A DNA stretch of 64,000 bases from Escherichia coli (GCF_048403405.1 NZ_CP183129.1); one strand, 5' to 3'; positions 1 through 42,391 are shown, counted from the first letter of the stretch. Numbers and translations are program-made. The notes: generated by a model from the sequence alone, not told the origin.

Positions 1-158
1 GGTGATAGAAATAACTCACCATCCAGAGTTGAGAATCTCGGGGTGGCGAGACGTACAGGGTTCTCAACACCGGAGAGCAAAGAATCCGGCCCGACCGAAG
101 TCGGCCCCGTACGCCCCGCCATAATTCTGACGCGAAAAAGACGTGGCAATACAGTACG

Positions 159-286
159 CACAAAAAAACCGCTTGCGCGGTTATGCGCTTTGCTCTGTAT
201 CGGGTTGAGAATCCCGGCACCCGTTTTATGAGGTGCAGCGGAAATGTAACCTGACCGATTGAGGCATGGCAAGCGGTTTTTTTGTG
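159..286. repeat. 18-bp perfect inverted repeat pair (CACAAAAAAACCGCTTGC at 159-176, GCAAGCGGTTTTTTTGTG at 269-286) flanking 92 bp
   Basis: Read directly from the sequence; the two arms are exact reverse complements. Confidence 0.7.
160..183 (-). terminator. Terminator-like hairpin on the minus strand (AACCGC-GCAA-GCGGTT followed by T7)
   Basis: 6-bp stem, GCAA loop and a run of 7 T on the minus strand, about 120 nt downstream of the 305..604 ORF. It lies inside an open minus-strand frame, so its function is uncertain. Confidence 0.35.
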
Positions 287-304
287 TGTGCATGTTCTGG
301 TTTC

Positions 305-2947: not shown

Positions 2948-3002
2948 AGTGTTTTTATGTTTGTGCCCGATGTGGCATGTTGCGATGGAGGATATGCCCG
3001 AT

Positions 3003-3323
3003 ATGGCATCTTTGTCAAGCATGGGTGAAAAATTTCGCCTGATTCGTGAAGCAGAAGGTATGACCCGCCAGGAGTTTGCGGATTGTGTTGGGCTGCCTTA
3101 TGGGACGGTAACTAACTATGAGGTGAGGGGGAAGCAAGTAACAGAGGGTGCCTTACTTAAGGTTACGAAACACCCTAAATTTAAGAAATATGCTTATTGG
3201 TTATCAACAGATGAAACGATGCCGGAGGTTGGGCAAATTTCTCCGGCTCTCTCTCTTGATGGTTCCTGCAATTCGGAGGGAGATCGTGTTTCAACCGAAA
3301 CAATCCAAAAATTATCCCGCTGA
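3003..3323 (+). CDS. P2 C-like immunity repressor (HTH), about 106 aa
   Basis: Track ORF 2949..3323 trimmed to the ATG at 3003 (GGAGGA Shine-Dalgarno upstream). HTH region and C-terminal tail resemble P2 C (GLPYGT.., KYAYWL.., GQISPAL). Confidence 0.8.
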   Translation: MASLSSMGEKFRLIREAEGMTRQEFADCVGLPYGTVTNYEVRGKQVTEGALLKVTKHPKFKKYAYWLSTDETMPEVGQISPALSLDGSCNSEGDRVSTETIQKLSR

Positions 3324-3419
3324 GGCCAGAAAACTGGTTAGACCTGCTTTTTGTCTGGTCTGATTATTGCTGGAAAGAGGCTGGAGAAATTGTAGAGCGG
3401 TTCATTGGAGGGCTTCGCA

Positions 3420-4424
3420 ATGTCGATTAAGAAGCTCGAAGATGGTCGTTATTTGCTGGACATCAGGCCGAACGGACGCAAGGGAAAGCGCGTGCGTAAG
3501 GTATTTGACAAAAAATCGGTAGCGGTGGCCACTGAACGCTACATCATGGCGAACGCTGAAAAGCGGGAATATATACAGGGCTACCGTGATCGTCGAACGC
3601 TAAATGATTTGCTTGAGTTGTGGTGGATGTATCACGGCCAGCACAGGCGTAAGGCAGAAGAAGACCGAAAACAACTGCGCAACATAATCAATGAGCTTGG
3701 CGCTGATATGCAGGCTGTGGATCTTGATAAGCTAAAAATTATCGCGTGGCGTTCTCAAAAGATAGCTGATGGATTGAAACCGTCATCTGCTAACAGATAC
3801 ATGAATCGGTTATCCGGAATGTTTACCGTACTGAAGAAAATAGGCCTCTGGGATGCAGAACATCCGGTAAGGGGAATTTCTATTCTTTATGTATCTCCAC
3901 GAGAAATGGCTTTCCTGTCCCAGAAGGAAGTGGCGTTATTGCTCGATACACTGGAGGGCGATTACTGGCGTGTTGCGCTTTTGTGTTTAAGCACGGGGGC
4001 GCGCTGGAGTGAAGCCTGTAAGCTTCGTGGTGAACAGATAGTTCATAACCGTGTAACGTTTCTTGAAACCAAAAATGGCCGAAAGAGAACAGTGCCAATT
4101 TCGCAGGCAGTTTGTGAGGCGATCAAAACCAGAGAAACAGGCGGCTTGTTTGAGGTGAAGTACCGGGAATTCTGCTTGGCGCTGAAAAGAGTTAAGCCCG
4201 ATTTGCCAAAAGGCCAGGCTGCACATGTGCTGCGGCATACGTTCGCCAGCCATTTTGTGATGAACGGAGGAAACATTATTGCGCTTCAGAAGATTCTTGG
4301 CCACGCAACCATTCAGCAAACAATGGCATATGCACATTTTGCACCGGATTACCTGCAGGATGCGGTGGCCCTTAATCCGCTGAAAGGTGGCGTGAGTGTC
4401 CACGCAGTGTCCACGGGGGATTAA
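3420..4424 (+). CDS. int: P2-family tyrosine integrase (334 aa)
   Basis: Strong similarity to P2 Int across its length (MSIKKLEDGRY.., LCLSTGARWSEA, IVHNRVTF, HVLRHTFASHF, YAHFAPDYLQDA). Start taken at the ATG at 3420, 7 nt after GGAGGG. Confidence 0.9.
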   Translation: MSIKKLEDGRYLLDIRPNGRKGKRVRKVFDKKSVAVATERYIMANAEKREYIQGYRDRRTLNDLLELWWMYHGQHRRKAEEDRKQLRNIINELGADMQAVDLDKLKIIAWRSQKIADGLKPSSANRYMNRLSGMFTVLKKIGLWDAEHPVRGISILYVSPREMAFLSQKEVALLLDTLEGDYWRVALLCLSTGARWSEACKLRGEQIVHNRVTFLETKNGRKRTVPISQAVCEAIKTRETGGLFEVKYREFCLALKRVKPDLPKGQAAHVLRHTFASHFVMNGGNIIALQKILGHATIQQTMAYAHFAPDYLQDAVALNPLKGGVSVHAVSTGD

Positions 4425-4451
4425 TTTTATATAGCCTGAAACGGCTTAAAG

Positions 4452-4486
4452 GGCGATACTGAATAACAATTTTTCAGTATTGCCCG
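4452..4486. repeat. imperfect 13-bp inverted repeat (GGGCGATACTGAA ... TTCAGTATTGCCC) in the int-pdxB junction
   Basis: Read from the sequence; one mismatch. Could be an int terminator or an att-associated site. Confidence 0.4.
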
Positions 4487-4582
4487 TCTAAATGGTTATG
4501 TTGTTATCTGTATGATTATGAATGTTTTTTCAGATTAAACAGCAGTTTGCAAATGGGCGTTTGTTAATAAAGGAGCCTTAGA

Positions 4583-5740
4583 TTGTCAGAGACTGAAAAA
4601 TGGTTAAAAATCCTTGTTGATGAAAATATGCCTTATGCCCGCGACTTATTTAGCCGTTTGGGTGAGGTGACCGCGGTTCCCGGGCGTCCAATTCCCGTGG
4701 CTCAACTGGCAGACGCGGATGCGATGATGGTGCGTTCGGTCACGAAAGTGAATGAATCTTTGCTGGCAGGAAAACCCATTAAATTTGTTGGCACTGCCAC
4801 CGCGGGGACCGACCATGTCGATGAAGCGTGGTTAAAGCAGGCGGGAATTGGTTTTTCCGCGGCACCTGGCTGTAATGCGATTGCGGTGGTGGAATATGTT
4901 TTCTCCTCACTGCTGATGCTTGCCGAACGCGATGGATTTTCACTGCACGAGCGTACCGTGGGGATCGTGGGCGTTGGTAACGTTGGTCGCCGTTTACAGG
5001 CGCGACTGGAAGCGTTAGGGATTACAACCTTGCTTTGCGATCCGCCCCGCGCCGACCGTGGGGATGAGGGGGATTTCCGCTCGCTGGATGAATTAGTTCA
5101 GCATGCGGATATTCTGACTTTCCATACGCCACTCTTTAAAGATGGTCCGTACAAAACGCTGCATCTGGCGGATGAAAAACTGATCCGCAGCCTGAAGCCG
5201 GGAGCGATTCTGATTAACGCCTGCCGTGGCGCAGTTGTCGATAATACCGCCCTGCTGACCTGCCTGAACGAAGGCCAGAAGTTAAGCGTAGTGCTGGATG
5301 TCTGGGAAGGCGAACCGGAACTTAACGTGGAATTGCTGAAAAAAGTGGATATCGGCACGCCGCATATCGCAGGCTATACCCTGGAAGGTAAAGCACGCGG
5401 TACTACGCAAGTGTTTGAAGCTTATAGCAAGTTTATTGGGCATGAACAGCACGTTGCGCTGGATACATTACTGCCCGCGCCAGAGTTTGGTCGCATTACG
5501 CTGCATGGCCCGCTCGATCAGCCAACGCTGAAAAGGCTGGTGCATTTGGTGTATGATGTGCGCCGCGATGACGCACCGCTGCGTAAAGTCGCCGGGATAC
5601 CGGGTGAGTTCGATAAACTGCGCAAAAACTATCTTGAGCGCCGTGAATGGTCATCTCTGTATGTGATTTGTGATGACGCCAGCGCGGCATCATTGCTGTG
5701 TAAACTGGGTTTTAACGCCGTTCATCATCCGGCACGTTAA
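4583..5740 (+). CDS. pdxB: erythronate-4-phosphate dehydrogenase
   Basis: Translation matches E. coli PdxB. The TTG at 4583 is 7 nt after an AGGAG Shine-Dalgarno; the exact start is uncertain. Confidence 0.93.
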
Positions 5741-11424: not shown

Positions 11425-11625
11425 GGTCTTGCCTGATGCGACGCTGGCGCGTCTTATCAGTCCTACGCAGGAGTAGAACCGTAGGTCGAATAAGGCGTTC
11501 ACGCCGCATCCGACAGCCGTTGCCTGATGCGACGCTGGCGCGTCTTATCAGGCCTGCGCAGGGGTAGAACCGTAGGTCGAATAAGGCGTTCACGCCGCAT
11601 CCGACACGCATTGCCCGATGCCGCA
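11425..11625. repeat. tandemly duplicated REP/BIME unit (~90 bp, two copies)
   Basis: GCCTGATGCGACGCTGGCGCGTCTTATCAG...CGTAGGTCGAATAAGGCGTTCACGCCGCATCCGACA occurs twice with a few substitutions. Confidence 0.85.
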
Positions 11626-42339: not shown

Positions 42340-42391
42340 CCGAATTTCGATTAACGCTCAGTCTCTGACTGAGAAAACTGGAAGCATGCTA

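Follow-up and report, generated by a model that had tools for sequence, protein, structure and literature searches.

The region described here, positions 1 to 304 of a 64,000-nucleotide stretch of Escherichia coli DNA (GCF_048403405.1 NZ_CP183129.1; hereafter the window), read on its minus strand, has its closest described counterparts in the immI region of phages P1 and P7, the immunity region of the satellite phage P4, and the isrK-orf45(STnc1160)-anrP region of the lambdoid Salmonella phage Gifsy-1. The order of elements in immI is the P51 promoters, a1/b1, c4, a2/b2, icd and ant1/2. The annotated P1 record names a1, b1, c4, a2 and b2 ahead of icd and places b2 over the icd ribosome-binding site, and specificity alleles that distinguish P1 from P7 are known. 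The corresponding order in P4 is PLE, seqA, cI (the CI RNA, equal to seqB), seqC, eta/kil, epsilon, orf151 and alpha, and P4 immunity acts mainly via Rho-dependent termination at timm. In the account of Forti et al. 1999 summarised in PMC10111431, the eta frame that covers seqA and CI, with kil nested in it, is translated only from the upstream promoter, and its translation prevents immunity-specific termination. In Gifsy-1, the IsrK terminator is partially read through, an RNA of ~80 nucleotides is processed at the position of C4, and the open reading frame (ORF) over that RNA is translated; IsrK pairs with the downstream RNA and activates translation of the anti-repressor, which amounts to an anti-antisense action (PMC4825925). 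The c4 and c4-a1b1 motifs were both described by Weinberg et al. 2010 (PMC2864571, supplement 1). IsrK was equated with seqA by Barquist et al. 2013 and Hershko-Shalev et al. 2016, whereas C4 was equated with CI by Barquist et al. 2013, and the processed STnc1160 RNA was likened to CI by Hershko-Shalev et al. 2016.

Positions 1 to 304 are very probably an RNA immunity module of the P1 immI or P4 type, situated in the early operon of a P88-like prophage of the P2 family. The left flank missing from the window was taken from an identical E. coli genome (L001, in which window position N corresponds to N+6000). Sequence, homology and covariation together establish the order of the parts, which is a predicted promoter, a leader carrying a1 and b1, a terminator, C4 with its b' and a' segments, a2, a spacer hairpin, b2 and an epsilon-like gene (Table 1). 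The C4 and isrK RNAs both exceed the gathering scores of their Rfam families (45 bits for RF01695, C4, and 50 bits for RF01394, isrK; that of a third model, RF03163, c4-a1b1, is 46.7 bits), which bears out the suggestion of a first-pass annotation, made from the window alone, that this might be a noncoding regulatory or RNA element. P1, P4, P88 and one Stx2a phage also carry the two families in this order, and the scores obtained here are as good as those in P1 and P4 themselves. The identical RefSeq genome has no annotation for either RNA.

The C4 RNA has a long closing stem around two hairpins, and its sequence contains the GCCACC 3' motif. In 24 relatives, 99.8% of the cells in the C4 helices are paired, with four pairs changed on both sides, against 36 to 48% in controls with slid partners. 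By analogy with the rest of the C4 family, the RNA would be matured from a longer transcript, with a 5' end generated by RNase P. When the leader is folded from position 236, hairpin 1 (236 to 217) and hairpin 2 (216 to 201) are followed by the intrinsic terminator. This terminator is the minus-strand hairpin with a T-run that had been noticed earlier in the left arm of an inverted repeat, with which it indeed overlaps. The predicted sigma-70 promoter matches the consensus at 9 of 12 positions, both of its hexamers are invariant in the relatives, and the predicted transcription start near 236 coincides with the 5' end of isrK. Other lineages carry TTGCTG/TACATT, TTGCAA/TATGCT or TTGACT/TATCGT at the same positions, and the −10 hexamer lines up with its counterpart in P1c4/P51b, an annotated promoter of P1.

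The specificity of the module would reside in two trios of short complementary sites. The motif GTTGAGAAYC occurs exactly three times in the 64 kb, at 28-37 and 204-213 on the plus strand and at 59-68 on the minus strand, where 0.29 copies are expected and 1 of 100 shuffles reached three. The first-pass annotation had found all three copies; it located 28-37 and the inverted nine-nucleotide variant at 60-68 correctly and set the remaining one a single nucleotide off, at 205-214. It had also recommended looking for the motif elsewhere in the prophage, and the search of the window returned only these copies, all within 28-213. They correspond to a1, a' and a2. The second trio, b1, b' and b2, had been missed. 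Its last member lies to the left of the window, where b2, the Shine-Dalgarno sequence AAGAGG and the ATG of a 76-amino-acid epsilon-like gene follow in succession (L001 6000 to 5980), with the Shine-Dalgarno region 7 nucleotides before the ATG.

Variation among related modules was traced through 80 P88-like loci encoding relatives of the 76-amino-acid protein, which gave 44 unique module sequences; formal pairing counts were made on 24 sequences, with slid partners and 500 shuffles as controls. The scaffold of the 44 modules is nearly invariant, and variation is concentrated in the six a/b sites. Five types of a' and nine types of b' are combinatorially assorted into 10 (a',b') combinations, and in every one of them the a1/a2 and b1/b2 sites present in cis match the antisense segments. 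Pairing reaches 100% for b1:b' (6 of 9 pairs changed on both sides), 91.7% for a1:a' (4 of 8) and 94.9% for a':a2 together with b':b2 (9 of 17). The slid controls give 14 to 63%, and none of the 500 shuffles attains the observed values. Predicted duplexes between C4 and its own targets have energies of −24 to −34 kcal/mol, compared with a mean of −15 for non-own targets, and 0 of 90 non-own combinations come within 2 kcal/mol of the own value. This covariation is the signature of what would be antisense specificity alleles, that is, heteroimmunity types. Because the copies change as Watson-Crick partners over 10 alleles, it points to RNA pairing and not to a common protein-binding site.

The gene under b2 can be assigned to the P4 epsilon family by two comparisons. 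Its product scores 32.5 bits with Pfam PF25738 (Derepression), for which the cut-off is 27, and shares 32% identity over 50 amino acids with P4 epsilon (BLASTP, E 6e-9). By analogy, it would act as an anti-repressor. It is followed by a 129-amino-acid gene, in which no homology to P4 orf151 was found, and then by replication gene A. P1 and P4 have an Icd/Kil-like gene after C4, which is missing here.

The locus resembles immI in layout, which has the same Rfam families in the same order and with nearly the same spacing: a1, 8 nucleotides, b1, about 61 nucleotides, C4, a2, a 27-nucleotide hairpin, b2 on the Shine-Dalgarno sequence, and the ATG. In both, hairpin 2 presents a1 in its loop and is followed by b1 and a terminator-like hairpin; after C4 and a2, a spacer hairpin leads to b2, which covers the ribosome-binding site of the gene that comes first downstream. 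The −10 of the predicted promoter stands at the same position as in P1, and specificity alleles exist there too, P1 differing from P7. Unlike the icd-ant arrangement of P1, the gene controlled here is the epsilon-like one; there is no C1 operator, and the module lies inside a P2-type early operon instead of forming a separate operon. Moreover, a long ORF spans the RNAs here, whereas the corresponding P1 frame is closed inside C4, and an 18-nucleotide long-range complement to the terminator is absent in P1.

The P4 region resembles the locus in its RNAs and in its genes. The CI RNA matches the C4 family at 74.9 bits and seqA matches isrK at 60.8 bits; CI is followed by epsilon, orf151, orf106 and replication gene alpha in P4, and the module is followed by the epsilon homologue and then the replication gene in the window's prophage. 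Like the long ORF described below, P4 eta starts upstream of the constitutive promoter and reads seqA and CI in the same frame. However, eta has an Icd/Kil-like C terminus and ends at the start of epsilon, whereas the ORF of the window lacks that domain and crosses the epsilon-like gene to an ATGA. The targets here also lie directly on the ribosome-binding site of the epsilon-like gene, unlike in P4, and the host element is a helper-type P2-like phage, whereas P4 is a satellite. With Gifsy-1 the locus shares an IsrK-type small RNA, an RNA at the C4 position that an ORF overlaps and, further downstream, a gene for an anti-repressor, here a putative one. The orf45 of Gifsy-1 is short and ends with AUGA at anrP; the ORF of the window, in contrast, begins ahead of the isrK promoter and runs on past the putative anti-repressor gene. 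The finding is explained by a known type of system, with a lineage-specific wiring made up of the epsilon-like gene directly under b2, the overlapping ORF and the long-range helix.

The first-pass annotation had seen a minus-strand frame that opens at the ATG at 293 and stays open to position 1, and had proposed extending the sequence leftward. The frame is open for all 97 codons in the window and continues to 205 codons in the identical genome. Its suggestion that this could be the 5' end of the next early gene holds insofar as there is a conserved ORF of the P4 eta or "Ash family" type; the further guess that it is the replication gene fails, as gene A is a separate ORF that begins about 700 nucleotides further left (L001 5293). 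The long ORF spans the two RNA genes, overlaps the epsilon-like gene in a different frame and terminates in an ATGA at the next gene; the junction between the 129-amino-acid gene and gene A is also an ATGA. Its start codon lies upstream of the internal promoter of the module, so that only transcripts from the early promoter would be translatable through the module. In every case the ATG is followed 2 to 4 codons later by an in-frame AAA AAC CGC TTG and lies a short way ahead of the −35 hexamer, and variants with an unrelated upstream gene still supply an in-frame ATG. The frame is intact in 40 of the 44 variants, including some with frame-restoring +1/−1 and +1/+2 pairs of indels.

The same relation holds in more distant modules. 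The isrK and C4 RNAs are read in the same frame by the P4 eta ORF and by the Ash-Rha ORFs of Stx phages, and in lineages whose epsilon-like proteins are only 33 to 38% identical to this one, an ORF of 202 to 209 codons spans the epsilon-like gene completely in another frame and has an ATGA with the next gene at its end. For the alternate frame, the probability of being open was calculated as 0.05, 0.007, 0.226 and 0.011 in four lineages (combined p of ~5e-4); for the stretch over the epsilon-like gene taken alone it is 5 to 8%, which is not significant. Conservation of the RNAs was considered as an accidental cause of the open frame, and was dropped in view of the frame-restoring indels, the shared frame in P4 eta, and the open frame and ATGA end at 33 to 38% identity of the epsilon-like proteins. 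Conserved features of the predicted product are confined to those that the RNAs and the overlapped epsilon-like gene dictate, and its Pfam Phage_ASH and PHROG matches cover exactly the RNA segment. We conclude that the long ORF appears to be kept open for its translation and not for its product.

The pipeline PGAP flags the long ORF as an incomplete "ash family" pseudogene in some genomes. The RefSeq entry of P88 has a hypothetical protein annotated antisense to the C4 gene (L002 5031-5219, SF19_gp13), and that of P4 still lists, across the CI RNA region, a 137-amino-acid coding sequence named "cI gene product, transcriptional repressor" (L084 8168-8584). These annotations are the probable reason why PHROG families matched by the ORF are labelled "transcriptional regulator/repressor". 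In L001 5676-5982, the 3' 100 codons of the long ORF wholly overlap the 76-codon epsilon-like gene out of frame. One viral genome (IMGVR_UViG_2825488710_000003, ~3590-4800) carries two complete modules in tandem, each with an Ash-like ORF, C4 and an epsilon-like gene, and the first long ORF ends in an ATGA at the start codon of the second.

The 18-bp perfect inverted repeat for which the region had been singled out earlier is exact. CACAAAAAAACCGCTTGC at 159-176 has its exact reverse complement at 269-286, with 92 nucleotides between them, and the match extends to 21 nucleotides at 95%; even at two mismatches it is unique in the window (0.01 expected). The 5' arm is invariant in the 44 unique relatives. 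In the minimum-energy fold of an RNA that includes this arm, the long-range helix replaces the terminator (−56 kcal/mol, z of −5.7), whereas in the RNA begun at 236, without the arm, the terminator forms. In a wider sample of modules, the complement is also present in two further lineages at a spacing of 92 to 104 nucleotides and is absent from Stx phages and other modules. Over the three lineages, 81.5% of the helix cells are paired, a value attained in 6 of 500 shuffles; slid controls give 37 to 54%, and the distal pairs vary between lineages (CG/UA, GU/GC/AU). The helix may be an antiterminator specific to transcripts initiated upstream, a possibility that we put a little short of even. The covariation of the helix is modest, and its role as an antiterminator is the least certain part of the best explanation.

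Table 1. Parts of the RNA immunity module and adjoining features on the minus strand of the window (for sites within the RNAs, 5' to 3' coordinates are given in parentheses).
Feature	Window position	Strand	Remarks
Preceding early gene, 99 amino acids	305..604	−	Weak Ead/Ea22-like match; stop codon 11 nucleotides before ATG 293
Ash/eta-like ORF, 5' 97 of 205 codons	1..293 (whole ORF: L001 5676-6293)	−	Open from ATG 293 to position 1
Inverted repeat, 5' arm, CACAAAAAAACCGCUUGC	269..286 (286->269)	−	Codons 3-8 of the long ORF; overlaps the −35 hexamer
Predicted sigma-70 promoter of the module	243..272	−	−35 TTGCCA (272->267), 18-nucleotide spacer, −10 TACATT (248->243)
IsrK/seqA/c4-a1b1-like leader RNA (RF01394)	162..236 (236->162)	−	63.1 bits
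a1 target/decoy site, GAUUCUCAAC	204..213 (213->204)	−	Loop of leader hairpin 2
b1 target/decoy site, AGAGCAAAG	188..196 (196->188)	−	Complementary to b'
Intrinsic leader terminator, AACCGC-GCAA-GCGGTT + T7	160..182 (182->160)	−	Stem invariant in 24 relatives
Inverted repeat, 3' arm	159..176 (176->159)	−	Terminator loop, 3' half of the stem, U-tract, GUG
C4/CI-like antisense RNA gene (RF01695)	39..126 (126->39)	−	78.5 bits, model positions 1-87 of 87
b' antisense segment, CUUUGCUCU	74..82 (82->74)	−	Loop of the second internal C4 hairpin; complementary to b1 and b2
a' antisense segment, GUUGAGAA(C)	60..68 (68->60)	−	Single-stranded stretch of C4; inverted motif copy
a2 target site, GAUUCUCAAC	28..37 (37->28)	−	Downstream of C4
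Spacer hairpin, GGUGA-N10-UCACC	1..20 (20->1)	−	Between a2 and b2; equivalent hairpin in P1
b2 site, GAGCAAAGA	directly left of position 1	−	Overlaps the Shine-Dalgarno sequence of the 76-amino-acid gene

Several results weigh against this picture of the module and its wiring. The RF03163 c4-a1b1 model reaches only 15.9 bits at 249->197, below its gathering score although in register, compared with 51.0 bits in P1 and 44.1 bits in P4. The long ORF is broken in 3 of the 44 variants. With Pfam PF10554 (Phage_ASH) its product scores 18.6 bits, below the cut-off of 26, whereas the P88 orthologue scores 27.1, the Stx2a ORF 66.7 and P4 eta 82.2. BLASTP of the window ORF against P4 eta is not significant (E 0.087), and the Icd/Kil-like C-terminal domain (NCBIfam NF033153), detected in P4 eta with an E value of 1.4e-20, has no match in the window ORF. 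As to the inverted repeat, no covariation was found within the P88-like group, in which the arms are nearly invariant, and one helix pair is broken without compensation in 23 of 24 P88-like relatives. The repeat was looked for in the P1, P4 and Stx2a phage modules and is absent from them, and constraints that overlap there, from the promoter, the codons and the terminator, could account for its core. Finally, the functional steps are all inferred from the P1, P4 and Gifsy-1 systems.

The observations on the inverted repeat are also the substance of the closest competitor of the antiterminator. The repeat may have no function as an RNA helix and be a by-product of three overlapping constraints, namely an A-tract or UP-like element with the −35 TTGC of the internal promoter, the K-N-R-L codons conserved at the N terminus of the ORF, and the terminator, GCGG+U7, that most isrK-type leaders share. 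We regard this as doubtful, and as a weaker candidate than the antiterminator. The core AAAAACCGCTTGC is invariant in three lineages and therefore yields no covariation, the modules L179 and L186 have the same terminator but another promoter and lack the complement, and the modules of P1, P4 and the Stx2a phage work without the repeat. However, a perfect match of 18 to 21 nucleotides, at the above expectation per 64 kb, far exceeds what short motifs need, and the distal pairs, which lie outside the promoter and terminator cores, differ by lineage yet stay paired. Considerably less probable is that the helix serves some other end, either as an RNase III site that splits the early messenger RNA from the module or by occluding the region after ATG 293 and so gating translation of the long ORF. 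A near-perfect helix of 18 to 21 bp that starts 4 to 7 nucleotides after the start codon of the ORF and encloses the whole a1/b1 leader would suit such a role. On the other hand, Hartmann and Forti are both said to have attributed, in 1995, the maturation of the P1 and P4 C4-family RNAs to RNase P and PNPase, and not to RNase III.

Two further explanations concern the region as a whole, and both are far less probable than either of these. One is that an early protein-coding gene, perhaps that for replication, simply begins here and that the 10-mers are iteron-like binding sites for a protein, as the first-pass annotation had proposed. A conserved 205-codon ORF does begin at ATG 293, and a replication endonuclease gene does lie downstream, but gene A is separate, about 700 nucleotides further on, and the product of the ORF has no conserved features of its own. 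Iterons would be several direct repeats in the same orientation and at regular spacing, whereas the window has two direct copies 176 nucleotides apart and one inverted copy, the latter in the single-stranded part of C4. The copies are instead one antisense segment and two RNA targets, of opposite orientations, that covary as Watson-Crick base pairs across the 10 alleles. Iterons or an origin were thus ruled out by copy number, orientation and covariation, and the early-gene explanation is the most improbable of all those considered. A decaying, inactive relic in a cryptic prophage is scarcely more credible. It would accord with the "ash family" pseudogene flags of PGAP in some genomes and with the unannotated RNAs of the identical RefSeq genome. 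Against it stand the RNA scores, which equal those of P1 and P4, the allele-specific three-way covariation, the conservation of the promoter hexamers, the Shine-Dalgarno sequence and the ORF, and the presence of the module in inducible, plaque-forming phages such as P88 and phiSM.

For an RNA immunity module, the described systems suggest the following course of events. In the lysogen, the constitutive module promoter would produce a short terminated leader, and read-through would give a precursor that is processed to C4. C4 would then pair with a2/b2 on transcripts of its own specificity and block translation of the epsilon-like gene, and its pairing may also cause polarity or termination upstream of the replication genes. 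This C4 immunity would form a second layer beside the C repressor, and the a1/b1 leader would titrate C4 as an anti-antisense decoy. Transcripts that arrive from the early promoter Pe would also carry the start codon of the 205-codon ORF. Its translation through the leader, C4 and the targets would make Pe transcripts insensitive to C4, as for P4 eta, and would hand ribosomes to the next genes through the ATGA overlaps. Since Pe transcripts would carry the 5' arm, this arm could capture the 3' half of the terminator in the leader and thereby work as an antiterminator.

A more elaborate version of this scheme, a "ribosome relay" in P88-like and related P2-family phages that combines a promoter- or ribosome-sensing helix with diversifying a/b heteroimmunity alleles, is put forward only tentatively, and we hold it to be improbable as a whole. 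In such a relay, the ORF would be translated only on early-promoter transcripts, through the decoy leader, C4 and both targets and across the epsilon-like gene to the ATGA. A translation track to the replication genes that is insensitive to immunity would then exist beside a C4-controlled track to the anti-repressor. The 18-nucleotide helix would sense the promoter of origin, the ribosome occupancy or both, and choose between the terminated small RNA and read-through, while the at least 10 combinatorial a/b alleles would represent diversifying heteroimmunity types.

This or a similar module is present in 1,820 of 5,426 complete E. coli genomes, about a third. Standard annotation names neither RNA, and pipelines call spurious or "pseudogene" ORFs across the modules. 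Recognition of the module would explain an RNA-based immunity layer in a very common P2-family prophage, and would tie phages of the helper type to the cassette for immunity and derepression in their satellite P4. The covarying alleles offer what may be a natural set of orthogonal antisense/target pairs and could be used to predict heteroimmunity groups, and the conserved overlapping ORF and the long-range helix bear on how lytic transcripts might escape their own immunity RNA.

The prophage that carries the module is entered by the start of the window, and its integrase gene (3405-4424) abuts pdxB. The plus strand carries a C-type repressor gene; Cox and the early genes are encoded on the minus strand and head towards position 1. 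DNA identical to the window was found in many E. coli genomes; the nearest described phages, at ~88% identity, are P88, phiSM and other Xuanwuvirus (P2-like) phages. The left flank in L001 encodes the 76-amino-acid gene, the 129-amino-acid gene, the replication endonuclease gene A and parM/parR-like genes. Among these, parM and a partition/stability gene downstream of gene A (L001 1098-2376) are segregation genes of plasmid type in an integrated P2-like phage. The best promoter-like site of the first 3.5 kb of the window (TTGACA, 18-nucleotide spacer, TATCCT at 2989-3018, minus strand) is upstream of cox and faces the C repressor gene (2949-3323, plus strand), and this region is likely to be the Pe/Pc switch region of the prophage.

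The RNA searches also returned matches that lie apart from the module. The Stx2a phage used for comparison has an ALIL pseudoknot, the frameshift element of the IS3 family, about 2 kb from its C4 module (L085 1037-1153, 120.9 bits). In the window, the Rfam family naRNA4, a nucleoid-associated noncoding RNA derived from REP, matches in the chromosomal part at 11484-11554 with 75.1 bits, and the nuoG RNA motif matches at 42342-42384 with 50.3 bits.

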